Position numbers and translations under genes: made by a program
The notes under the pieces: model-generated
What the model saw: the letters and a program-made list of their open reading frames with translations, nothing else
What the model was told of the DNA's origin: nothing
The model's database searches: none
Source: Chrysomallon squamiferum
Taxonomy: Eukaryota; Animalia; Mollusca
Length of the DNA: 64,000 nt
Reading direction: 5' to 3'
Assembly (NCBI GenBank): GCA_012295275.1
Contig: CM022672.1
Coordinates: 21,142,001-21,206,000 of the forward strand
Shown here: positions 1-50,486 of the stretch, piece after piece
Layout of the letters: every line of letters starts with the position of its first letter
Numbering within the stretch: position 1 is the stretch's first letter

Positions 1-33
1 AAATTACAAGTTCTGAAGCTTACTTGAAATAAG
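1..33 (+). other. Non-coding 5' exon of M4 protease copy 1 (5' end at or near the window edge)
   Basis: Ends AAG|GTGAGA (donor at 34). The same block recurs at 8231-8263 and ~24761-24793 just downstream of a TATA box. Matching acceptors TTTCAG lie at 616 and 625. Confidence 0.6.
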
Positions 34-57
34 GTGAGAATAATTTAGATTATATTT

Positions 58-141
<84 letters not shown>

Positions 142-293
142 ACTTGTTGTCAGATCTCTTTGTCACTTTTGACTTGTTTCAAATCTCACTCTTTTCCCAT
201 TCTTTCATCTCCTTTTCGTCGTATATTTCTCTTTTTCACCATCTTTCTTTCTGTTCCAAATGTGTCTTTCTCTATCGAATGTCCTCCCCTACC

Positions 294-381
<88 letters not shown>

Positions 382-644
382 TAATATTTCGTATTTCAAA
401 TTATAGATACACTTTCATAGGTTCAGTAAAAAAAAAAAAAATAATAATAATAAGAAGAAGAAGAATAAGCAAAAATAAAAAATATTAATAATAACAATAA
501 TAATAATAATAATAATTATTATTATTATTATTATTATTACATTTAAATAATATATATGTATATAAAAATTAGAAAAAATAATGAAGAATATGTATAAGAA
601 AACTGCTTAATTTCAGAGGTTTCAGACGTTGCTTCAACACCAGC

Positions 645-3600
645 ATGATGAAAATTGGTTTAGCTGCAATTGTCTGTAAGTATATTTTGTTGATTCTAAT
701 ATATTTCTATTAGTGAAATGCCTTTTATAGTTCCCTGAACATACCGACATTCTGTTAAATTTTTAATATTTTAATAACAGCTCTTTCAAGTCATTTAAAT
801 AGCTCCTGGTTTGGAATCGTTCATTATAACAATAATAAGATCAAATAGTTTGTGAAATGGTTCAGGTCAGATGCGAAGCAGTATACTTCAGTTCTTAATG
901 CCTAGGATTGTTTAAATCCTTACTGGGTTGTATTTGGACCGAATGAGCAGTAAAATTCACATTCAGTAGATCATAATTATACTTGCACTTTCAACAGTGA
1001 ACTATAGACAGTACTACTGAAGTTAAATTCTTAACTGAGATATCAAATCTTTTAAAAATAATTTTCTTATGACACTAAGATTTTAACGAGAAATACAAAC
1101 AACAATTTCACGCATCTTATTATCCTAAGTTATTGTAATAGTGTCACGAGTTTTGTTGTTTAATGGGTACAAAAAACAAAGTCTAAAACATAGAATTTTC
1201 AGTCCATGGAAAACTCAAATTCTAAAATAGACTAATCATCATTTTCATAATGTTTTGTAATCCGTTTCGTTTGAGAGTCATTTAATGAAATTTTCCACGC
1301 TGGAACTTCTGTTTTGGCAAGAGTTTGTATTCATAAAATGCTTATTATTTGGTGAAGTTTATACAAAATTATATATATTTTGAACAATTGTCTAAAATGT
1401 ATTCCTATCCTTAAACTGATTTGGGGGTGCTAATATCTATTTGCGTCTCACAGGGAATACTGTCAGAAAACACGTCTGAGCGACTTCATGTAGTCAGGAA
1501 TATCTATGAATAGTTACAAAAAATTTGTATTAACCTTTTGCATATATATTCAGGATAGTAACCAGAGAATTATACCGTCATATTTCTACTGTTAGTTGAA
1601 CATCATGGGGACAGGTTGAAACTAACATTTGTAGTTAGAAATGTTCTTTTTTCTACGATGGAAATCAATATAACTAACATGGACACCTTGCATCCAAATC
1701 GTGTTCAAAGTCCAACTTGTATAGTAATCTAGGGGTTTCCAAACATTTTATTTCACCGATCCCTTTGATGATGTCCGAATAATCGAGAGTTTGATAATTA
1801 AATATTTAGAAGATGTTTTTTTTACGACGTGTTCGTTGAATAATAATGATTACGGTATAGTAAAAACTGAATATTAAAAAAACGAAAATATACACCACCA
1901 ACAACAACAACAACAAACAAACAAAAAAAAAAACACACAAAAAAACACAAAAAAACCCTCAAACAAAACAAACAAACAAAACAAACAAACAAACTAATAA
2001 AAGAAAAACCATTTATAATTAAAGGTGAAATCTGGGATTGATATATTTTAAATGGACTACTGACACTGGACTGGTAATTTTTAAGGTTTAATTTTGAATC
2101 TCCTCTTTCTTCCAAGTTCGGCATGTTTCTCTACATTATTAGAAGTACGTTAGTATCGCTAAATCCAGTACAACCATATATGAAGTTGGGAATGGTAAAA
2201 TAAAAGACAGTTGACTTGCAAAAAAGTAGGTATATCCAGTATAAATTATTTCAAAAACAACAATATCTTGGGGTTCTGTATTGTTGTGGTCAGTTTTGGA
2301 TTCTGTTGTTATTCATTTTTTTAGAATGTTTAATTTTAACAGAAAAAAAAATAAACAAATAAAAATAAAAATAAAATTCAAGAAAAAGAAAGAAAACAAA
2401 CACAAACATCATTAAGATCACTTTAACTCTGATCGATATAAGGGGGTGGAGCACTGTGGAAACCAGACTTGTAAAAATTTAATTCAAATCACAAAAAAAG
2501 TTCTATAACATAATGATGTCGGTATGAGAAATCTGACGTGGTCTTGACAAATATCCGTCGAAACACCTCTATTTGAAACTAATGAAACTAATTATACTAG
2601 TGCAAATATGTAAATAGTAGTTTTTAATTTTGTTTTCAAGACATTATACAGCATCATTTTCCTTTCACCATAATTAATTTCTATAAATATTTTTCTTTTT
2701 AAAGGTTTTATTTCCTTCATTTCTGTCGACTGCGCTGACAGACAAGATGCTGGAGAAAGAGCAAACCTGGTGATGCCAGATCGTCGCAGTGTATATTTTG
2801 AAGAAAGTCGACAAGAACGATCGGAAATAAATGTGAATGGAAAGAACCGGAAAAATTTACACGATATTCTCAACGCAAACAGTCATTATGACTTCAAAGT
2901 TGTACGAACCGTTAAAATCGCAAACGGCAAAACAAAACAACGTATAGAAGTAACCTTCGATGGCATCCCTGTATTTGGTCTCAGTATCCAGGCTACGTAC
3001 GACGAAAAGAACGGTTACACGGGAGCTCTGACGGGCGAGTTTGTCTCGGGAATAGAAAATGATATCAGCGACTCTTCATCTTGCCAAAGAAACGAAAACT
3101 TTTTGCTTTCACTAGGCAAAAAGAAATCTGGGCTTCCAGCTGTCTGTCCACACTGCAGCTTAACTAGGTCACAGAAGTATATCTATTTTGATAACAAAAA
3201 TAAGGCACATTTAGCTTATGTTATAGAAATCGAAAACGATGCCCCAGAGAAATTTTCTCGATATTATCTCATTGTTGATGCTTGCACCCTCGGCACTTAC
3301 GAGATGAAAAACACGACACCAAACCGCAAACAGTCGGTATCTTCCATCCATGAAGCAGATATCACTAAAGAGGAAAGAAGATCGAATATCAATAAAAGGC
3401 AAAATTGTCCAGTGTCTGCCAGAGGGACAGGAGGGAATCCCAAAATAGGACCTATCCATTACGGAACCTGGCCATTTTGTCTTGATGTTACAAGGAGAGG
3501 TCGAAGATGTATCTTGGAGAACGCTAACGTAAAGGTTACTGACATGAAACACAGGAATACAGGAGGACGCGTATATCGGTACAACTGTCGTAGAGCACGT

Positions 3601-4650
3601 GATTCGATTAATGGAGCAAACTCAGCAAACCTAGATGCATTCTTTTACGGAAATGTCATGACTCGCGTATTCCAAAATAATTACCACATGAATCCACTGC
3701 CTTACCAGATCTCATTAAAGACCCACTGGGGAAATAATTATAATAATGCATTTTGGGACGGGAGAGCCAGAGAAGCCGTTTTCGGCGATGATAATAACTA
3801 TGTTTATACTTGGGTATCTCTGGATATAGTCGCACATGAAGTTGCTCATGGCATGACAGACCAGTATTCTAATTTGGTGTATGCAGATGAGTCTGGTGGA
3901 ATAAACGAAGCATTTTCTGATATTACAGGTGAGATGGTTGAGGCTTTTTCTGGTTACAGAACTACTGACTGGATGGCCGGTTACGACATTACCAAGAGGC
4001 AAAATAGTGCAATAAGATATTTCTGGAATCCGCCAAAGGATGGTGTTTCAATTAGCCATGTAGATGATTACAACAACGGAATGGATGTCCACTACAGCAG
4101 CGGTATTTACAATAAGGCATTTTATGAGATGGTTGTGACACAAAGGATACCTATGAGACTTGCATATCACATGATCCTGTTAGCCAATCAAATGTATTGG
4201 AATGCTAACAGCAATTTCCAACAGGCAGCCTGTGGAGTTCGAAATGCCGCCATAGATCTGGGTATCAGCACATCTAAAGTCGATGCTGCCTTTTCAGTCG
4301 TGGGTATCAACACCGCCAGATGTGGTGGAGGAAACAATGGATATAACACGCTTTATCCTGGCAGACTGACATTCAACGTGTCTCCGTCGGTCAATCCATG
4401 TTTTCTACTACAGCCGCGTTCGGCCTCTTGGTATTACATATATGTCATTGCAAACACCAGAAATGGAAATCACGTCCTGATGACCATTAAGAACGGAGTC
4501 ACTATGCAAACCATTGGCTCAAGATACGATCGACTCGCTTATTACTTACCCAGCAACGGACAGGATCGTCTAATCTGCTTTTCTGCCAGCAGACCCACAA
4601 CAGTATATTTACGAACGTACTATTGTGGATTTAACGGTTGCGTAAACTGA
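645..4650 (+). CDS. M4-family (pseudolysin/vibriolysin-like) zinc metalloprotease preproprotein, copy 1; join(645..675,2705..4650), 658 aa
   Basis: Exon 645-675 encodes MMKIGLAAIV plus T, then donor GTAAGT at 676. Acceptor TTTTCTTTTTAAAG|2705 restores the frame to give the signal peptide MMKIGLAAIVCFISFISVDC-A. The propeptide has FTP-like (QRIEVTFDGIPVFG) and PepSY-like (AHLAYVIEI...YLIVDA) motifs. The mature domain has GGNPKIG, NAFWDG, HEVAH (3835-3849), GGINEAFSD (third Zn ligand E at 3907) and DVHYSSG (H at 4090). A ~110-aa C-terminal extension follows. The ORF-track start at 2770 is not the true start. Confidence 0.93.
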
Positions 4651-4692
4651 TGACCATAAATATGTGAAAGAAATATTTCTACAGTTTTATCG

Positions 4693-4698
4693 AATAAA
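4693..4698 (+). terminator. Polyadenylation signal of copy 1
   Basis: AATAAA ~43 nt after the stop codon, at an equivalent position in copies 2 and 4. Confidence 0.65.
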
Positions 4699-8158: not shown

Positions 8159-8263
8159 AACCAATCAAAATTAGAATAGAGAGAGAAGGAAGATGACAAC
8201 TGCTTTATATAAGGCGAAAGGAAGAAGACGAAATTACAAGTTCTGAAGCTTACTTGAAATAAG
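8159..8263 (+). promoter_or_regulatory. Pol II promoter (CCAAT 8161, TATATAA 8206-8212) and non-coding exon 1 of copy 2
   Basis: AACCAATCA, then TATATAAGG ~45 nt later, then a short exon ending AAG|GTGAGA (donor 8264). The same arrangement is conserved upstream of copy 4. Confidence 0.7.
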
Positions 8264-8372: not shown

Positions 8373-8695
8373 ATAATAATAATTATAACTATTATTATTT
8401 TACTTTTTCTTTTTTTTTTACTGAAAGATGAAATATTATTGCAGATATATATATATCTGCAATAATATTTCCTCTTTCAAATTATATATACACTATCATA
8501 GTTTCATTAAAAAAGAAAAGAGTAAAATAATAATAGTTATTATATTAAAAAAATAATAGTTATAATTATTATTATTATTATTATTATTATTACATACAGA
8601 AATAAATAAATATATATGAATGAAAGAAAATAAAGAAAACATTTACAGGGGAATTATCTAATTTCAGAGGTTTCAGACGTTGCTTGAAAACCACT

Positions 8696-11600
8696 ATGAT
8701 GAAAATTGATTTAGCTGCAATTGTCTGTAAGTATACTTTATTCATTCTAATACATTTTAGTAGTTAAATGCCTTTTATTGTTCACTGAACATATTATAAT
8801 TCTGTTATTAATATATATAAATCTTAACATTATTTTTATATTTCATTAACAGCTCTCTGAAATTATTTAAATAGCTCCCTTTTTGGAATCATTCATTATA
8901 ATATTATTAAGATAAAATATTCTGTAAAGTGGTAGAGGTCGGACTGGAAGCAGTGTACCTCTGTTCTTGATGCATCGGCCTGCTTAAATCCTTATTGGAT
9001 TGTATTTGAAGCGTATGAACAAATACATTCACGTTCAGTAGATTATAATTATACTTGCACTTTCAAAAGTCAACTACAGACAGTACTTCCAAAATTACAA
9101 ATTTTAACTGAGATATCATGTCTTTTAAAAGGAAACATCAAGATTTTAACGACAACATGCAAACAGCAATTTTATGCGCATTATTATAATAAGGTATTGG
9201 AATATTGTATTGGTTACTGTTTAAAATAATATATATGTTAAAAAATAATAATAACAGAAACAAACAAAAAATCCAAAACAGAATTTTGAGCCCATGGAAA
9301 ATTCAAATTGTAAAACAGACTAATCATCCATCTTATATGATTTTCATTCAGTCGTTTGGAAAATAATATTTTATAATCCGTTTTGTTTTCGGATCTTTTA
9401 ATGAAATTTTCGTCGCTGGAATTTCTGTTTTGACAAGAGTTTGTATTCATAAAATGCTTATTATTTAGTGAAGTCTCAAAAAAATTACATATTCGTAAAT
9501 TATATATATCTTGACAATTGTCTAAAATTAATACGTATCCCTTAAATTGTGATTTGAGGTTCCTGATACGTATTTGTGTCTCACGTATACGTATACAATA
9601 TCTCACACAGGAAATATTGTCAAAAAAACACGTCTTATGGACTTCATATAGTCATGAATACATCGGAATAGTTCTAGAAAGTTGCATTAACCTTTATATA
9701 CATATTCGGGATATTAAACAGAGAATTATGTGATCATGTTTCTGCTGGACTGATTGAACGCCGTGGGGTCGGTCGGGTTGAAACTGACATTTGTAGTTAG
9801 AAATGTTATTTTCTCTACGATGGCAATCACTATATCTAATGTGGACACCTTGCATCCAAATCGTGTTCAAAGTCCAACCTGTATAGTAATTGATGATGTC
9901 ATAATAATCCAGATTTTGATAATTAAATATTTTTTTGTGACGTGTGCGTTGAATAATAATGATTATTGTACAGTATAAACTGTATATTACAAAAAGAAAA
10001 CATACACCAAAAAAACAACAGCAGACAAGAAAAAGAAAAACTATTTATAATTAAAGGTGAAATCTGGCATTGATATTTTTTTAATGGCCAGTTGACATTG
10101 GACTGATAATTTCTAAGCTTTAATTTTGAATCTCCTCTTTCTTCCAAGTTCGGCATGTTTCTCTACATAATTAGAAGTACGTTAGTATCGCTAAATCCAG
10201 CTTCAACCGTATATGAAGTGGGGAATGGTAAAATAAAATGTAGTACACTAGCAAAAAATTATTTCACAAATGTAGCTGTGATTTCAACGATACCTTTGCA
10301 TTCTATGCTGTTGTGGTCAGTTTTGGATTTTTTTGAATATTAAAACTTCTAAAAAAACAAAAAAAAAAAAACAAACAATATATATAAATAAATAAATAAA
10401 TAAAAGATCAAGAAGAAAGAAAGAAAAAACAACAACAATAATATCACTTTATCTCTGATCAGTGGGGGCTCGGACCACGTTAGAAATCAGTATTGAAAAC
10501 ATTTAATTCAACTCGGTATGAGAAATCTGATGCGCTCTTAATAAATATCCGTCGAAACATTTGTATTTAGATCATCACTACAGAAAACAAAAAACTCTAC
10601 TTATTATTATTGTTATTGTTGTTATGAATAACTGGTGAACTTGAAACGGCTGTACATAAAAGAATAAATCGTTAAGCATGACATTAATATGTTTACCCAT
10701 CGCAATTTGGACATTGATTTCTGATAGCTCAACGTTTCTACTTATGCACCAAGAGCGATATTTCTTCTTTTTTTTTTTTCCTGGAATTCTTTCCTTTTTC
10801 TTAATTCCCTAAAATCTTAAAATTCCATTTATAATCAAAACATCTAATTAATTTACATGTTCTTAAACATTGTGTACCACAATAATAATAATAGCAACAA
10901 CAACATCAACAACAACATTCATAATAATAATAATAATAATAATAATCATAATAATAATAATAATAACTATTATTATTATTGTTGTTGTTATTGCTGTTAC
11001 CATTATTACTATTATAATTATTATTATTATGATTATTATTACTAGTATTATTATTTTTTTATTCATTTATTCATTCATTTATCTGTTGAAAATAATTATA
11101 CTATTACAAATATATAAAAAGTAGTGATTAAGTTAGATTTCAAGACGTTTACATTACAGAGCATAACTTTCCTTTCACCATAATTAATTTATTAAAATAT
11201 TTTTTCTTTTCAAAGGTTTTATTTCCTTCATTTCTGTCGACTGCGCTGACAGACAAGATGTTGGAGAAAGAGCAAACATGGTGATGCCAGATCGTCGCAG
11301 TGTATATTTTGAAGAAAGTCGACAAGAACGATCGGAAATAAATGTGAATGGAAAGAACCGGAAAAATTTACACGATATTCTCAACGCAAACAGTCATTAT
11401 GACTTCAAAGTTGTACGAACCGTTAAAATCGCAAACGGCAAAACAAAACAACGTATAGAAGTAACCTTCGATGGCATCCCTGTATTTGGTCTCAGTATCC
11501 AGGCTACGTACGACGAAAAGAACGGTTACACGGGAGCTCTGACGGGCGAGTTTGTCTCGGGAATAGAAAATGATATCAGCGACTCTTTATCTTGCCAAAG

Positions 11601-13161
11601 AAACGAAAACTTTTTGCTTTCACTAGGCAAAAAGAAATCTGGGCTTCCAGCTGTCTGTCCACACTGCAGCTTAACTAGGTCACAGAAGTATATCTATTTT
11701 GATAACAAAAATAAGGCACATTTAGCTTATGTTATAGAAATCGAAAACGATGCCCCAGAGAAATTTTCTCGATATTATCTCATTGTTGATGCTTGCACCC
11801 TCGGCACTTACGAGATGAAAAACACGACACCAAACCGCAAACAGTCGGTATCTTCCATCCATGAAGCAGATATCACTAAAGAGGAAAGAAGATCGAATAT
11901 CAATAAAAGGCAAAATTGTCCAGTGTCTGCCAGAGGGACAGGAGGGAATCCCAAAATAGGACCTATCCATTACGGAACCTGGCCATTTTGTCTTGATGTT
12001 ACAAGGAGAGGTCGAAGATGTATCTTGGAGAACGCTAACGTAAAGGTTACTGACATGAAACATAGGAATACAGGAGGACGCGTATATCGGTACAACTGTC
12101 GTAGAGCACGTGATTCGATTAATGGAGCAAACTCAGCAAACCTAGATGCATTCTTTTACGGAAATGTCATGACTCGCGTATTCCAAAATAATTACCACAT
12201 GAATCCACTGCCTTACCAGATCTCATTAAAGACCCACTGGGGAAATAATTATAATAATGCATTTTGGGACGGGAGAGCCAGAGAAGCCGTTTTCGGCGAT
12301 GATAATAACTATGTTTATACTTGGGTATCTCTGGATATAGTCGCACATGAAGTTGCTCATGGCATGACAGACCAGTATTCTAATTTGGTGTATGCAGATG
12401 AGTCTGGTGGAATAAACGAAGCATTTTCTGATATTACAGGTGAGATGGTTGAGGCTTTTTCTGGTTACAGAACTACTGACTGGATGGCCGGTTACGACAT
12501 TACCAAGAGGCAAAATAGTGCAATAAGATATTTCTGGAATCCGCCAAAGGATGGTGTTTCAATTAGCCATGTAGATGATTACAACAACGGAATGGATGTC
12601 CACTACAGCAGCGGTATTTACAATAAGGCATTTTATGAGATGGTTGTGACACAAAGGATACCTATGAGACTTGCATATCACATGATCCTGTTAGCCAATC
12701 AAATGTATTGGAATGCTAACAGCAATTTCCAACAGGCAGCCTGTGGAGTTCGAAATGCCGCCATAGATCTGGGCATCAGCACATCTAAAGTCGATGCTGC
12801 CTTTTCAGTCGTGGGTATCAACACCGCCAGATGTGGTGGAGGAAACAATGGATATAACACGCTTTATCCTGGCAGACTGACATTCAACGTGTCTCCGTCG
12901 GTCAATCCATGTTTTCTACTACAGCCGCGTTCGGCCTCTTGGTATTACATATATGTCATTGCAAACACCAGAAATGGAAATCACGTCCTGATGACCATTA
13001 AGAACGGAGTCACTATGCAAACCATTGGTGCAAGATACGATCGACTCGCTTATTACTTACCCAGCAACGGACAGGATCGTCTAATCTGCTTCTCTGCCAG
13101 CAGACCCACAACAGTATATTTACGAACGTACTATTGTGGATTTAACGGTTGCGTAAACTGA
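8696..13161 (+). CDS. M4-family zinc metalloprotease preproprotein, copy 2; join(8696..8726,11216..13161), 658 aa
   Basis: Exon MMKIDLAAIV plus T|GTAAGT (8727). Acceptor TTTTCAAAG|11216 is in frame. The large exon is nearly identical to copy 1, with all catalytic motifs intact. Confidence 0.92.
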
Positions 13162-13203
13162 TGACCATAAATATGTGAAAGAAATATTTCTACAATTTTA
13201 TCG

Positions 13204-13209
13204 AATAAA
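13204..13209 (+). terminator. Polyadenylation signal of copy 2
   Basis: AATAAA at the same position as in copy 1. Confidence 0.65.
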
Positions 13210-16631: not shown

Positions 16632-17172
16632 AATCGGTAGCTTTAAATGGTTAGAAATGTCTACTGACACAGTTTCGAGGCTCATTTTATTAACTATCCT
16701 ATAGATGAAAAAATAAAATGGAAACCGCAGAAACTGAGCTGGATCCAAAAACGAAACGTTTTATTACAAATTATGTTTACATTGCCTCCAAAAAAGTGTT
16801 CACACAGTTTTCAGTTTTCAGTTATCACTGTGAAAATTATAGAAACCTACTCATTGCAAAAGACTATCACCTTATTTTTTCTACAAATTATAGTCTGTCT
16901 TAAGGATTAAATAGGGTAATATGTGTGTGTGTGTGTGGCTACATAGTTACAAATGTATTACCTGGATTCCTTATTTTGTTTTATTTATGAAATTTTATTA
17001 TGATTATTATTTTTTGTTGTTGTTGTTGTTTACAGCTGATTACAGTTGTTTACAGCCGTTTAATCTCATTACAGAAAAACGTCTAGGCAAATTTACTCGC
17101 AAACTTGATATTAGCCTAGCGAATACGAAGCAAATACATTTTTTTTTTTTCACACTGGACTGCTATTTTCCA
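16632..17172 (-). repeat. ~540-bp inverted copy of the inter-gene spacer (homologous to ~14351-14898 and ~5752-6293)
   Basis: Reverse-complement match. The spurious METAETELDPK ORF is on - at 6022-6207 and 14627-14812 but on + at 16718-16903. Confidence 0.9.
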
Positions 17173-18078: not shown

Positions 18079-18344
18079 CATAATAATAATAATAATAACT
18101 ATTATTATTATTGTTGTTGTTATTGCTATTACCATTATTACTATTATAATTATTATTATTATGATTATTATTACTAGTATTATTATTTTATTCATTCATT
18201 CATTCATTTATCTGCTGAAAATAATTATACTATTACAAATATATAAAAAGTAGTGATTAAGTTAGATTTCAAGACGTTTACATTACAGAGCATAACTTTC
18301 CTTTCACCATAATTAATTTCTATAAATATTTTTTCTTTTCAAAG

Positions 18345-19829
18345 GTTTTATTTCCTTCATTTCTGTCGACTGCGCAGACAGACAAGATGCTGGAGAAAGA
18401 GCAAACAAGGTGATGCCAGATCGTCGAAATGTATATGTTGAAGAAAGTCGACAAGAACGATCGGAAATAAATGTGAATGGAAAGAACCGGAAAGATTTAC
18501 ACGATATTGAGCACTGACGGGCGAGTTTGTCTCGGGGATAGAAAATGATATCAGCGACTCTTCAGCTTGCCAAAGAAATGAAAACTTTTTGCTTTGACTA
18601 GGCAAAAAGAAAGCTGGGCTTCCAGCTGTCTGTCCACACTGCAGCTTAACTAGGTCACAGAAGTATATCTATTTTGATAACAAAAATAACACGGCACCAA
18701 ACCGCACAAAGTCGGTATCTTCCATTCATGAAGCAGATATCCCTAAAGAGGAAAGAAGATCGAATATCAATAAAAGGCAAACTTGTCCAGTGTCTGCCAG
18801 AGGGACAGGAGGGAATCCCGAAATAGGACGTATCCGCTACGGAACCTGGCCATTTTGTCTTGATGTTACGAGGAGAGGTCAAAGATGTATCTTGCAGAAT
18901 GCTTATGTAAAGGTTTCAGATATGAATCAAAGGTATTCTGGAGGACAAGTATATCAGTATAATTGTCGAACAGCACGTGATTCGATCAATGGAGCAAACT
19001 CGGCAAACCTAGATGCATTCTTTTATGGAAATGTCGTGAGTAAAGTTTTCCGAAACAATTACCATATGAATCCATTGCCTTACCAGACCTCATTGAAAAC
19101 CCACTGGGGATATCAAAATAATAATTATGGGATTCGAGATCCAAAGAAGCCCTTTTCGGCGATGAGAGTAATCGACTTTATACTTATGTAGCTTTGGATG
19201 TGATCGCACATGAAATTGCTCATGGTATGATAGACCAGAATTCTCAGTTGGTGTATGCAGATCAGTCTGATGGAATAAACGAAGCATTTTGTGATATTAC
19301 AGGTGAGATGGTTGAGGCTCTTTCTGGGTACAGAACTAATGATTGAATGGCCGGAATATTTTCGGAATCCGTCAAGAAATGGTGTTTCAGTCGGCCATGT
19401 AAACAATTACTACAACGGAATGGATGTCCACCATAGCAGCGGTATTTACAATAAGGCATTTTACGAGATGGTTGTGACACAAAGGATACCTATGAGACAT
19501 GCATATCACATGATCATGTTAGCCAATCAAATGTATTGGAATACTAACAGCAATTCAACGTGTCTCCGTGGGTCAATCCATGTTTGCTACCACTGCCCCG
19601 TTCGGCCTATTGGTATAACATATATGTCATTGCATACACCAGCAATGGAAGTCACGTCCTGATGACCATTAAGAACGGAGTCACCATCCAAACCATTGGC
19701 TCAAGGTACGATCGACTCGCTTATTATTTACCCAGTTATGGACAGGATCGTCTAATCTGGTTTTATGCCAGCAGACCCACAACAGTATATTTACGAACGT
19801 ACTATTGTGGATTTAACGGTTGCGTCTAG
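18345..19829 (+). pseudogene. M4 protease pseudogene (copy 3)
   Basis: The acceptor (AAAG|18345) and HEIAH / GINEAFCD / DVHHSSG are retained. Relative to copy 1 there are deletions of ~154 nt (at ~18508), ~108 nt (~18689), 4 nt (~19126), ~35 nt (~19354) and ~157 nt (~19556). TGA stops occur at ~18595 and 19344. There is no upstream promoter or signal exon, and the polyA signal has decayed to AATATA (19879). Confidence 0.93.
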
Positions 19830-20555
19830 TAAACTGATGCTATACATATATGAAAGAAATATTTCTACAATTTTATTGAATATACATCTATGTATTTTCT
19901 TGTAAACAGAACAACACTATGACAACTGATAACTGACTAAAACATTAATAGAAGGATCACCTTTATCTGCTTGTTTTCCTGTTTAATTAAACGTGAAATC
20001 TCATAATGCTATCTGTTGTCTTTTTGTCGATAACTTTATTCTTATGTACCTAAGCACTGTACATTATATATTAGAAACGATACTGATATGTCATTAAGTC
20101 AGTAGAACTGATACTCGGTAACAAATGAAAAGAAATGGCAGAAATGAAAAGACGTCTACTAAAGCCATTTATTCTTCCAAAAAGACAAGTATATGCGCAG
20201 ACACAGACAGGTCTAAGTATATTATTTCCCTAATTACGGTAATAAAATAAATACAAAAAGAAATCAAAAGTAAAAGTTATATGTTTCCTCCATTAATCAA
20301 AATATGATCATAATAACTGGAAGAATTTCGTCAGTTCGGACATCTTGAAATCAGCAGTTCCTTAGCTTTTTAGATAAACTGAGCCCAGCAATAAAAAAAA
20401 AAATATTGTGGAACCTTAGAAAGAAATCTGAATGTAAAACTTTCAAGCCAGAACTTTCCTAGAGAAAAATACTTCTGTCTACATAAATTTAACAATTCTA
20501 TACGTTCATCTTCTAACTGATACTTTCCACACACACACGAACACACATAAACACA

Positions 20556-24687: not shown

Positions 24688-24793
24688 AACCAATCAAAAT
24701 GAGAAGATAGATAGAAGAAAGATGGCGAATGTTTCATATAAAGGCGACACAAACAAGACGAAACTACATGTTCTGAAGCTTATTCGAAATAAG
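24688..24793 (+). promoter_or_regulatory. Pol II promoter (CCAAT 24690, TATAAA 24737-24742) and non-coding exon 1 of copy 4
   Basis: Same motif order and spacing as the copy-2 promoter despite diverged flanks. Donor AAG|GTGAGA at 24794. Confidence 0.7.
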
Positions 24794-24939: not shown

Positions 24940-25059
24940 CTATAATAATTTATGGTCTTTTAAATAACAGAGGTACTTTCATAGTTTAGTTTTAAAAATT
25001 AAGGAAAAGAAAGTAAACTATTTAATTCCAGAAGTTTCAGACGTTGCTCGAAAATCAGC

Positions 25060-28000
25060 ATGATGAAGATTGGTTTAGCTGCAGTTGTCTGTAAGTATGT
25101 TTTCTTGATTCTTTTGCGAGTTTAGTAATGTAATTCCTCTGATGTTTCCCTCAGCCTCTTGACATTGTTTTATTAATTTAGATAACCATTAAAAATCTCA
25201 TACAGTTTAGTAACACTCTCTCAAGTGATGTAAGCTCCCATTCCGGAAACGTTCATTTTAACGTTAGGATAAAAATTGCCATGGCAACGATTACGCGATT
25301 TTGTTTTAACCTCCGGAGGTTAGGATCAGTTTTACCATTTTTCGGATGCTGTATATAAATAATGATTTAATTTTCCAGTAGAATGCAGAATTTCATTTAA
25401 AAAACAAAACATTTTAACACTGCAAATTGAAACTACATGGAGAAATATTGGGGTAAATGTTTCCTTTATGAAGCCACAGAATTTAATTCATCATGATACA
25501 AAATATTCTGAGAAGCAATGCAACGCTGCTTAAAGCTTTATTTGATAATATGTGAAGTTATCATGCAACGAATGAGCAATGAAATTTACCTAATTATACT
25601 GCAAATTTCATTTTGATCTGGGACATCAAACTTTTTAAAATTAAATTGCCCTGTGACTCCCAAAGTTTAACGTACAGTTTTATCCTGTTATTGTAATACT
25701 GTCAAGTCTATAATTAGTTGCTGTTTAAAAGATCGACGTAAAAAAAAAAAAAAAAAAATAAAAGCAAAAACAGTAAAATCCAAAACATAGAATAGTCATT
25801 CCATTATAAAATTCACGTTCTAAAACAGAACAGTGATCCCTCCTATATGATATTCACCCCATCTTTTGTACCATATTATTTTATAATACGTTTGTTTTCG
25901 GTGTCGTTTAATGAAAAAATTTAATATTTCTTGCTGGTAATTGTTTTTTGGTGTAGGAATGTTTTTATTCGTAAAATTTATCAAACAGTGCTGAAATCTA
26001 TACTAAATTACGTATTCATAACTTATATGCATCTTGACAGTTGTCTAAAACTGATATCCACCCGTTAAAATGTGATTTGGGGTGCTAATATCAATTTATG
26101 TCTCACAGGGAATACTGTCACAAAACACGTATGATCGACTTCATGTAGTCATGAATATATAGTTAAAGAAAGTTGTTTTAACCATTTGTATACATATTCA
26201 GGATAATAACCAAAGCATTATCAGGTTAAGATTGTACTGGATAGATTGGACCCATGTGGACATGTTTGGAATGGAGATTTTTGGTTAGAAATCACCTTTA
26301 TCTGTGCTGGTAATCCAGTAACTAAAATGGACACCCTGCAGCCAAATCCTGCTCAAAGCCCTGCACGAATATATAAACAGTTAACTCATTATAAACTTAA
26401 ATCAAATTGAATAATTTCATGAGAGAGGTCAGATGATAACAGGCAGTGCAAACATTAGAATCCAACATTGCAGCAAATGGGGAACACTTACTTTTCAGTT
26501 CTGAAGCTGTACAAATTGGAGTCCAAAATTCCATTCAGTTATATTATTTCCTAACCAACAAACAGTGATGTCCTTAATGTCAGTTTGCTCTGTCTACGGA
26601 CCCTTGGCTCCGAGGATGCTTATGTTTTCCTAGGACCATCATCAACTAAAGTCACATTACTTTCAATTCAATGATTACATATATTTTCTGAAAGTTTTAG
26701 GAATTATACATATTTTCTGTAACGTACGTGTGTCTGTGTGTGTGTGATAAGATAAAATTGTTATACTACTAATTAGTATTAACACTGTGTTGCTGCTGTT
26801 GTGCTTGATGCTGTTATTACTACTATATAGTTCAAAAACTATTTCAATAATTGTGCTATTTTTTTTATGTAAGTATGCCTGGCTATGTATGTATATGCCT
26901 ATGTATCCAATTGAAAATAATAATAATAATACAAAGATATATATATATACCGTATATACTTGTGTACAAGGCGACCTTATGTATAAGTCGATGTGTATTT
27001 TAAGACCAAAAATTGCGTCATTTTGTGTATTACTTGTGTATAAGTCGACTGTAGATTCCAGGCACCGTCACTATTTTTAGACCAGTGTGACAGTGCCATG
27101 AAGGCCTACATTGTACGCCTACTGTAACATAACTTGCACGAGCTGTAACTTGCACGAACATACCATAATAACGTAAATGCATGTATTACACGAGCTATAG
27201 CCTAAATGTATCATAAACAGTATTTCAAATATGGCGAGAAGTTGAACTGATTTCTGCTGCAGAACGTTTATAGAAATTTAGTTTGTTTTCGATTTGTCGG
27301 TAGTGGATATTAATGACGATTGCAATATTATTTCACCAAATTCTTTACAATTAAACAAGTGAGTTTTGTTTATGAAATTAGGACCGATATTTAGTGCAAT
27401 TTGGCAGAGCAGTCTGCATTCCTAGATCAGTGCAAGACGCCGTAAGGCATAACGCCGTACTGACGGTTTTCTCGCTTTAAAATGTATTTTTATGTCATTA
27501 AACGGAAGAATATCATGTTTTACCTTCATATTTGGTTTTGTTATTTAATTTTTCAAAAATGTTTATACGATAAAATTATATTTTTGAAAAGCTGAAAGAC
27601 CGGGATTATTTTAGATGCATCCCGTAGCAAAAAATAGTCAAAATGGCGACTCTTCGGCAACAGCTACAAAAGCATTACCTATGTATAAGTCGACCCCCAA
27701 AATATTACCTTAATATAGTCTCCCAAAAATTCGTCTTATACACAAGTATATACGGTATATATTTATATGTTAAAGCATTGATTAACATCGTCTAAAGATT
27801 TTCTTCTGCATAGGGCGTAACTTTGCCTTAACCGTAATTAATTTATTTATATATTTCCTTTTTTTAAAGATATTATTTCCTTCATTTCTGTCGACTGCGC
27901 TGACAGACAAGATGCTGGAGAAAGAGCAAACATGGTGATGCCAGATCGTCGAAATGTATATATTGAAGAAAGTCGACAAGAACGATCGGAAATAAACGTG

Positions 28001-29815
28001 AATGGAAAGAACCGGAAAGATTTACACGATATTTTCAATGCAAACAGTCATTATGACTTTAAAGTTGTACGAACCGTTAAAATCGCAAACGGTAAAACAA
28101 AACAACGTATAGAAGTAAGCTTCGATGGCATCCCTGTATTTGGTCTCAGTATCCAGGCTACGTATGACGAAAAGAACGGTTACACGGGAGCTCTGACGGG
28201 CGAATTTGTCTCGGGAATAGAAAATGACATCAGCGACTCTTCAGCTTGTCAAAGAAATCAAAATTTTTTGTTTTCTCTAGGCAAACAAAAATCTGGGCTT
28301 CCAGCTGCCTGTACATACTGCAGCTTAGCTAGGACACAGAGGTATATCTATTTTGATAACAAAAATAAGGCACATTTAGCATATGTTATAGAAATTGAAC
28401 ACGATGCCCCAGAGACATTTTCTCGATATTATCTCATTGTTGATGCTTGCACTCTCAGCACTTACAAGATGTATAACACGGCACCAAACCGCAAACAGTC
28501 GCTATCTTCCATTCATGAAGCAGATATCCCTAAAGAGGAAAGAAGATCGAATATCAATAAAAGGCAAAATTGTCCAGTGTCTGCCAAAGGGACAGGAGGG
28601 AATCCCAAAATAGGACCTATCCGCTACGGAGACCCACCGTATTGTCTTGATGTTACAAGGACAGGTCAATGGTGTTTCTTGAACAATTCTTATGTAAAGG
28701 TTACTGACATGAAACAACAGACTACCGGAGGACAAGTATATCGGTACAACTGTAGTAGAGCAAATGATTCGATTAATGGCGCAAACTCGGCAAACCTGGA
28801 TGCATTCTTTTATGGAAATATAATGACTCAAGTTTTTCGAAAGTATTTCCAGATGAATCCACTGCCTTTTCAGATATCACTGAAAACCCACTGGGGAAAT
28901 CATTACCATAACGCAGCGTGGCACAAGAGCCAGAAATATGCCCGTTTCGGCGATGATAGTGACAGCTATTATACTTATGTAGCTTTGGATGTGGTCTCAC
29001 ATGAAGTTGCTCATGGCATAACAAACCAGTATTCTAGTTTGTTTTATTCAGGTCAGTCTGGTGGAATAAACGAAGCATTTTCTGATATTACAGGTGAGAT
29101 GGTTGAATTTCTTGCTCCCTACAGATCGAATGATTGGTTGGCTGGTTACGATGTAAGCAAAGGGAAATATACAGCGATGCGATCACTTAAAAATCCGCCG
29201 CTGGATCATAAATCAATTAGTCATGTAAATAACTACCATGATAAACTAAATGTCCACTACAGCAGCGGTATTTACAATAAGGCATTTTATGAGATGGTTA
29301 TGACACAAAGAATACCTATGAGAGATGCATATCACATGATCTTGTTAGCCAATCAAATGTATTGGAATTCTAACAGCAATTTCCAACATGCAGCCTGTGG
29401 AGTTCGAAATGCTGCAGCAGATCTGGGTATGAGTACTGCTCGAGTGGAAGCTGCGTTTTCAGTCGTGGGTATCAACTTTACTGCCTGTGCAGGAGGGAAC
29501 AATCAATACAACACTCTTGAACCTGGCAAACTGACGCTCAAAGTATCTCCCTTGTTCAGTCCGTGTTTGTTAATACAGCCCAGATCAGAGTTGTTGTATA
29601 TTCTGTATGTCATTGCAAACACTAGCAATGGGGGCCATGTCAAGATGACCATTAAGCATGGTGTCACTATGAAAGAGATTGGTTCAAGATATGATCGACT
29701 GGGCTATTATTTACCCAGAAGCAGGCAGGATCGTCTAATCTGCTTTTCTGCCAAGAGATATATAACAGTTAATTTAAACACATACTACTGCGGACATAAG
29801 GGTTGCGTCAATTAA
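25060..29815 (+). CDS. M4-family zinc metalloprotease preproprotein, divergent copy 4; join(25060..25090,27870..29815), 658 aa
   Basis: Exon MMKIGLAAVV plus T|GTAAGT (25091). Acceptor TTTTTAAAG|27870 gives MMKIGLAAVVYIISFISVDC-A. HEVAH, GGINEAFSD and NVHYSSG are intact, and the large exon is the same 1,946 nt. Confidence 0.93.
26950..27755. mobile_element. Non-autonomous Tc1/mariner(pogo)-type MITE, ~806 bp, in the intron of copy 4
   Basis: TIRs CCGTATATACTTGTGTA... and ...TACACAAGTATATACGG are flanked by TA on both sides. The subterminal motif TGTATAAGTCGA repeats at ~26980, ~27036 and ~27682. The element is absent from the introns of copies 1-3. Confidence 0.88.
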
Positions 29816-29862
29816 ACTGATGAACATACGCAGATGTAAGGAATATTTCTACAATATTCCCG

Positions 29863-29868
29863 AATAAA
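29863..29868 (+). terminator. Polyadenylation signal of copy 4
   Basis: AATAAA in conserved context (CGAATAAAGATTTATCTCA). Confidence 0.65.
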
Positions 29869-30640
29869 GATTTATCTCAATTTCAATGTATTTTCTAGTG
29901 AATTTAAATTTAATAATTAATTGAAAAGTAAATGAAAAATCACCTCTATCAACGTTTTTCCCTGTTTAATCAAGCGTGAAAGCTAACGATATTATTTGCC
30001 ATTCCATCGATGGAATTTAAATGAAAAGATGTCTTCTAAAGCCTTATTTTTCCAGACAATACACAGGAACAAGCACACAGACAGACAGGCCTACATATAT
30101 TATTTCCCTAATTACCGTAAAAAAATACATTATTACAGGGGTGTACAATGTTTATTTTTAAGTCTACATACAAAGTCCTACGAACAAAACCTAAGCTCCA
30201 CACACCACATACACATGTACACACAAATACAAATACATACGCACACACAAACACATAAACACATGTACACACACTTACACTCACAGACTGGTTTTACTTT
30301 ACAGTGATATATCAGTTTTATTATGGGTTAGGTTTGGCACTAACTATTCGCTTCAGGTATGATACATGTTCATCTTAACGTCGTCTACGTTTACATACAT
30401 GAGGACTATAAATCGTGCGCGTATTTTAGACTGTTCTTGAAATCATTCTTCTTAAAAATAAATCCTTACTTTAATAGAATAAAATAGGTCAGGGTAGAAA
30501 CGACATATGTGTTAAATAAATAAATATGCATGTGTATCACAGGTTAAGGAAAAATAGAAAAATAAAATCTCAAGTATGGAATTCAGATAAATTTCGTATA
30601 TACATATATACATACATATTCTTACAAAAATACTCACATC

Positions 30641-32999: not shown

Positions 33000-50486
<17,487 letters not shown>

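Follow-up and report, generated by a model that had tools for sequence, protein, structure and literature searches.

A small 5′ exon of animal type joined to a long exon of bacterial origin has direct precedents in aphid ldcA and rlpA and in stink-bug GH26. In the available text of the aphid study (PMC2662799), ldcA consists of a non-coding first exon and a single coding exon, and rlpA carries its signal peptide on a separate first exon whose borders coincide with domain borders. The hemipteran (stink-bug) GH26 genes, as described in the accessible part of their report (10.1101/2024.04.15.589584), are bacterial in origin and ~217 My old. They consist of a ~50-bp coding exon, one intron of 80-250 bp and a ~1,000-bp exon, encode a signal peptide and have expanded in copy number. 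Among molluscs, the biomphalysins of Biomphalaria are a secreted, expanded, bacteria-derived family with tandem copies; the available portion of that report (PMC8047071) describes them as wholly intronless and as pore-forming proteins, not proteases. Two other transferred genes, a fungal amylase (PMC3584928) and msp130 (PMC11878542), became intron-rich, and the amylase has no signal intron in the text available. Proteases of family M4 are described as "known almost exclusively from bacteria" in the accessible part of PMC7851659.

Here, we analyze a cluster of M4 protease genes in a 64-kb stretch of DNA from Chrysomallon squamiferum, hereafter the window. These genes resemble GH26 in their short coding exon, single long exon, signal peptide and copy number, ldcA in their putative non-coding first exon, rlpA in the separation of signal-peptide sequence onto an upstream exon, and the biomphalysins in their tandem arrangement. 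They differ from GH26 in enzyme, host and intron length (2.0-2.8 kb), from rlpA in that the intron cuts through the signal peptide, and from the biomphalysins in having predicted introns and encoding proteases.

Cluster Layout and Gene Copies

The window consists of animal-type DNA with ~30% GC and many microsatellites. Three long frames are near-copies of one protein (copies 1, 2 and 4), and a fourth copy (copy 3) is broken. The features are as follows.

1..33, + strand: copy 1, putative non-coding exon 1, with donor AG/GTGAGA, as in 3/3 copies
34..616, + strand: copy 1, predicted 5′UTR intron of 583 nt (592 nt if the acceptor at 626 is used); two TTTCAG acceptors
617..675, + strand: copy 1, exon 2; UTR plus 31 coding nt (645-675) for the first half of the signal peptide
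676..2704, + strand: copy 1, predicted phase-1 intron of 2,029 nt splitting the signal peptide; GTAAGT donor, pyrimidine tract plus AAAG acceptor
2705..4698, + strand: copy 1, exon 3; remainder of the signal, FTP propeptide, M4 catalytic domains, C-terminal beta domain; stop at 4650 and AATAAA at 4693 (Pfam and motif reading)
8159..8263, + strand: copy 2, CCAAT box (8159), TATA box (8206) and exon 1, the boxes conserved with copy 4
8668..8726, + strand: copy 2, exon 2; coding 8696-8726
11216..13209, + strand: copy 2, exon 3; stop at 13161, AATAAA at 13204
18345..19830, + strand: copy 3, a paralogue disrupted by internal deletions, which retains its acceptor
24688..24793, + strand: copy 4, CCAAT box (24688), TATA box (24737) and exon 1
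25032..25090, + strand: copy 4, exon 2; coding 25060-25090
27870..29868, + strand: copy 4, exon 3; stop at 29815, AATAAA at 29863
33000-50486: neighboring multi-exon gene for a protein with a cyclic-nucleotide-binding domain; six coding segments located

Neither exon 1 nor exon 2 was located for copy 3 within the window. This decayed copy (18216-19900) is the sole one in the window without leader exons, and an inverted repeat segment (16632-17172) adjoins its break. The neighboring gene, which had previously been credited with 8 exons, yielded 6 coding segments. A search of the window with Rfam gave 0 matches. The M4 copies are integrated in host DNA, as indicated by the eukaryotic multi-exon neighbor and by sequencing run X1, an independent run that behaves as DNA and covers the intron and exon of copy 4 in 30/30 bins. 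Within copy 4 intron 2, positions 26949-27765 form a non-coding, MITE-like element with terminal inverted repeats, whose depth in run X1 is ~1,000 times that of single-copy sequence. A mitochondrial insert was considered for this high-depth element (26.9-27.8 kb) and rejected, as six-frame translation with tables 1 and 5 yields no long frame, and terminal inverted repeats are found instead.

Copies 1 and 4 share 77% protein identity, and the dN/dS of 0.43 between them indicates that the copies are under purifying selection. Their synonymous divergence (2705-4650 versus 27870-29815) rises from 0.13 in the propeptide to 0.38 in the catalytic region and 0.73 in the C-terminal region. Between copies 1 and 2, identity reaches 98% downstream of 2583, yet only 72% across 380-1932. 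The uneven divergence in these two pairs suggests patchwise gene conversion. Near the active site, copy 4 (27870-29815) carries NAAW, whereas copies 1 and 2 and most relatives carry NAFW; this substitution may alter specificity.

The Encoded Protease

The protein is a vibriolysin/LasB-type M4 zinc preproprotease with predicted proteolytic activity. Pfam assigns, named in this order, FTP (24.8 bits), Peptidase_M4 (74 bits; cut-off 22.4) and M4_C (106 bits; cut-off 24.4). The zinc site is intact in copies 1 and 4, with HEVAH at 388, E412 as the third ligand and H473 as the catalytic histidine. The predicted structure (pLDDT 77.6, pTM 0.82) shows 42-44% identity to MCP-02 and PlM4P, 39-40% to LasB and 24-27% to thermolysin-type enzymes, with target TM-scores of 0.83-0.89 against MCP-02, PlM4P and LasB. 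It also matches the MCP-02 propeptide 3nqz_A (E 3.7e-10), consistent with a prepro architecture containing FTP and PepSY-like elements. The C-terminal domain had no Pfam PPC or PKD match, and a wide structural search with this domain gave no result.

Vibriolysin MCP-02, PlM4P and the Pseudomonas elastase LasB (MEROPS M4) provide the closest comparison: all have a signal, an FTP propeptide, M4 and M4_C, share the HExxH and Glu zinc ligands, and are 39-44% identical to the window proteins. The window genes differ in their predicted spliceosomal introns and putative Pol II promoter, and their products in extra conserved cysteines and a K/R-R-Q linker motif. This motif precedes the catalytic domain in 8/14 aligned proteins, as scored by eye, and its presence suggests host-type processing.

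Predicted Signal-Peptide Intron and Front End

The earlier note on this DNA proposed that a 31-nt coding segment is spliced in phase 1 across 2.0-2.8 kb to an intron-free exon. At the level of sequence, this proposal is borne out in all three intact copies. The segments 645-675, 8696-8726 and 25060-25090 each start with ATG and end at T/GTAAGT, and acceptors consisting of a pyrimidine tract and AAAG lie at 2704, 11215 and 27869 in copies 1, 2 and 4. The resulting predicted introns are 2,029, 2,489 and 2,779 nt long. The joins 645-675/2705-4650, 8696-8726/11216-13161 and 25060-25090/27870-29815 give open frames of 658 aa each with a single stop, and the 1,946 coding nt of each large exon are unbroken. 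The unspliced first in-frame ATG (2773, 11278, 27932) lies downstream of the signal peptide, in agreement with the note's contention that the open reading frame track misses the start. Nine signal residues are encoded in the large exon (exon 3) and the rest in the small exon; the predicted intron cuts through the signal, and the exon border does not fall at the signal/domain border.

The choice of the small exon was examined among candidate ATG..GT phase-1 mini-exons upstream of the acceptors, which number 3, 2 and 4 in copies 1, 2 and 4. Only the 31-nt candidate, with its second ATG, is common to all copies. Exon 2 with its donor is identical at 58/65 positions between copies 1 and 4, whereas the intron is identical at 677/1047 (Fisher p 1e-5); for copies 1 and 2, the corresponding figures are 60/65 and 826/1036 (p 0.006). 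Conservation alone fails to single out exon 2, however, because the top 65-column intron window is identical at 61/65 positions in both copy pairs. A separate intronic block (1446-1720, 9603-9882, 26073-26361) is 78-80% identical across the three copies. It begins near an acceptor-like CAG, and a frame read from it stops early; this block could be a regulatory element or an unused exon.

Further upstream, the two acceptors of the predicted UTR intron (617, 626) lie 9 nt apart, and either may be the one used. Within the window, matches to exons 1 and 2 occur in the M4 copies only. In copies 2 and 4, a CCAAT box and a TATA box at matching spacing lie ahead of the putative UTR exon. For copy 1, the promoter lies outside the window and the predicted start site is near base 7-10; its front (positions 1-137) is 97.8% identical to copy 2 and 92% identical to copy 4. 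An AATAAA signal follows 43-48 nt past the stop in each intact copy. The proposed eukaryotic front end with 5′-only introns thus stands as to promoter, predicted introns and polyA signal on a prokaryote-derived ORF, with splicing itself a prediction.

RNA contigs bear on this last point. The predicted copy 4 junction 25090/27870 is absent among the 15 of 21 joints listed for runs X1-X4, and across these four runs RNA contigs give no cover over 28636-30190. For copy 1 exon 3, no RNA dataset was listed as containing it, which counts neither for nor against expression. As no spliced read was seen, both splice junctions stay predictions. In run X4, the exon-2 bin of copy 4 has a depth of 0.76. RNA contigs of X2-X4 match 28100-28307 at ~82%, at a depth 29-48x higher than the high-copy element would predict if everything were DNA. 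Because contig depth is a poor measure, this excess is a weak hint that a diverged paralogue is transcribed.

Bivalve-Like Loci

A metagenome scan with a bivalve query recovered at least 80 loci, five of which (L001-L005) are 53-65% identical to the query; the remainder are 32-39% identical. L003 comes without upstream DNA, and front ends were compared in L001, L002, L004 and L005. In the tree, L001 and L002 cluster with Ruditapes and Mercenaria (support 99/97). L001, L004 and L005 share upstream DNA and look like paralogues from one host type, so the four loci represent only about two independent sources.

All four contigs with upstream DNA have a phase-1 AG within the signal peptide, located 16 (L001, L004, L005) or 17 (L002) codons before the conserved propeptide Asp, versus 14 in the window. 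Upstream, 4/4 loci have a small exon that starts with ATG, measures 34-37 nt (16-22 nt if a later ATG is used) and ends at a GTAAGT or GTGAGT donor, giving predicted signal-peptide introns of 318-1,065 nt with 11-12 signal residues downstream. The recurrence of a phase-1 acceptor and a small ATG exon in 4/4 contigs indicates that the leader is likely old. The split codon is T/GT (Cys) in L001, L004 and L005, as in window copies 1 and 2. In L005, an in-frame stop just upstream of the acceptor means that the ORF cannot start by read-through. Homology of the introns requires indels in the signal, because their position differs by 2-3 codons between lineages. The N-termini of the ORF calls P0001/P0197 and P0016 are rich in Phe and, judged from the protein sequences, look like acceptor read-through 15 and 14 codons before the Asp.

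The two lineages differ elsewhere in their front ends. The bivalve-like loci have a second predicted phase-1 intron in the propeptide, which the window copies lack, and they seem, from their sequences, to lack the UTR intron. A TATA-like box lies ~96 nt before the ATG (17 in L002). The last exons of L001 and L002 are open for 600 and 566 codons. A tandem array with a period of ~50 nt occupies the contig end of L001 (10359-11584).

The Molluscan M4 Clade

The best sequence matches to the window proteins are one unnamed protein, abalone proteins and gammaproteobacteria, at ~33-42% identity. A profile search adds Elysia, Babylonia, Lottia, Potamilus, Tegillarca, Mactra, Solemya, Ruditapes and Mercenaria, such that the named relatives comprise Haliotis, Elysia, Babylonia, Lottia and six bivalve genera. 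Catalytic-domain trees place the window proteins within a single mollusc-like group that includes gastropods and bivalves, with SH-aLRT 99 for 28 rows (a subset selected from 74) and support of 100/98 for 19 rows. The RefSeq proteins of Haliotis, Ruditapes and Mercenaria labeled "neutral protease-like" or "elastase-like", which are automatic names only, belong to the same clade, but they are 30-42% identical to the window proteins, which form a long separate branch.

Twelve animal-like rows join the mollusc-like group against 27 named bacteria (support 98), the bacterial rows being search neighbors. In these trees, built without a distant outgroup, the animal-like rows form one side of a branch; they are nearer vibriolysin than thermolysin. 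Animal-like M4 proteins of a sister group (P0149, P0242, P0253, P0261, P0305 and relatives) occur as several paralogues per long contig, and P0149 keeps two bacterial PPC domains. The presence of gastropods in both main subgroups makes the gene likely older than the gastropod-bivalve split. From these trees, the M4 gene was likely inherited from an old bacterium-to-mollusc transfer that preceded this split.

A literature search on M4 transfer to molluscs or animals, covering titles and the starts of abstracts outside subscription papers and supplements, returned nothing on topic, and the accessible part of PMC8079154 has 0 matches for the terms sought. A pan-molluscan vibriolysin clade with 5′-restricted introns is apparently undescribed.

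Origin of the Leader

The earlier note suggested that host leader exons were recruited onto, or evolved at, the prokaryotic ORF to route it into the ER. The routing argument finds no support, since bacterial homologues already have signals: a simple hydropathy rule finds an N-terminal hydrophobic signal in 26/27 named homologues. The cleavage context is also alignable, with ASA-ADRVD in Luteimonas and VDC-ADRQD in the window at the same place. Of the two wordings, "evolved at" fits better than "recruited onto". The reading we favor, with moderate confidence, is that a bacterial vibriolysin-type M4 gene gained one intron early, inside its inherited signal, and now exists as tandem copies. The transfer looks too old for DNA similarity with a host donor gene to remain. 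Animal genes in general show an excess of phase-1 introns close to signal cleavage sites, for which both proto-splice-site insertion and exon shuffling have been argued as causes in the available text of PMC1626468.

The strongest competitor, which we regard as rather unlikely, is exon capture: the bacterial ORF would have inserted into intron 1 of a host gene for a secreted protein, and that gene's promoter and leader exon would have taken the place of the bacterial start and n-region in a single step. Joining a host exon would fix expression at once, aphid rlpA is interpreted in this way in the accessible text of PMC2662799, and a small ATG exon of like size (31-37 nt) recurs in distant lineages. 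The window leader peptide scores 24-28 against L001, L004 and L005, a level that just 1-2 of 159 bacterial N-termini attain. However, one bacterial N-terminus scores 29, and the score against L002 is just 14, which 55/159 equal or exceed. Because the bacterial maximum is 29 and the bivalve-like maximum 28, leader-peptide likeness cannot separate a host from a bacterial origin. The position of the intron, which splits the signal instead of bounding it, and the cleavage site at the bacterial position also argue against capture.

A related scenario, which we consider unlikely, is a single transfer, switched on by a captured host promoter and leader exon, whose recipient was either an early mollusc or a still older ancestor among marine invertebrates. 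The earlier ancestor is considered as recipient because an animal-like sister clade exists. The ~1.8-kb catalytic exon would have stayed intron-free in every lineage since, over what we take to be ~500 million years, with new introns added 5′ only.

It is improbable that a phase-1 hot spot acquired signal-peptide introns independently in the window and in the bivalve-like loci. At least 23 parallel gains are inferred for the transferred fungal amylase gene in the text available (PMC3584928), and both the offset of 2-3 codons and the phase-1 enrichment near cleavage sites would accord with parallel gains. The shared phase, the identical split codon in three loci and the similar leader length speak against them, as do the Phe-rich N-termini of P0001/P0197 and P0016, which resemble read-through of an acceptor at a comparable distance from the Asp.

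Recombination with cDNA causes intron loss that is biased to the 3′ side and leaves a 5′-only pattern. An intron-rich ancestor that lost its downstream introns in this manner would yield the pattern seen here, and msp130, another old transferred family, is intron-rich in the available text of PMC11878542. We consider this history very improbable: the last exons of L001 and L002 are open for 600 and 566 codons, long contigs yield many ORF calls (570-810 aa) in which the catalytic domain is unbroken, and no intron-rich member was found among the loci and ORF calls examined. Bacterial contamination, or unexpressed relics with chance signals as leader exons, would explain why RNA junction evidence is lacking but is scarcely credible given the microsatellite-rich introns, the eukaryotic neighbor, purifying selection and the same layout in other hosts.

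Implications

With early intron gain inside an inherited signal as the favored reading, our analysis allows a history and mode of action to be proposed. A vibriolysin-type gene, its own signal peptide included, would have been acquired from a bacterium before the gastropod-bivalve split, and one phase-1 intron would have become fixed early inside that signal. Later 5′ introns would have been added separately, the UTR intron in the window genes and the propeptide intron in the bivalve-like loci. RNA polymerase II would start ~30 nt after the TATA box, and removal of two introns would join the pair of small 5′ exons to the single exon that is free of introns. The 20-residue signal would be cut after V-D-C; the propeptide would fold, act as an inhibitor of the enzyme and probably be cleaved off at the K-R-Q linker motif. 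The secreted enzyme would then digest extracellular protein, for example, food, mucus or matrix.

ORF-only callers miss the true start and signal peptide of such genes. An expanded, secreted M4 clade across gastropods and bivalves contrasts with the description of M4 as a family of bacteria, and Vibrio need not be the source of M4 peptides in mollusc samples. The clade offers an old, multi-lineage case of how a transferred gene gains its first intron and why the rest of it stays intron-free.
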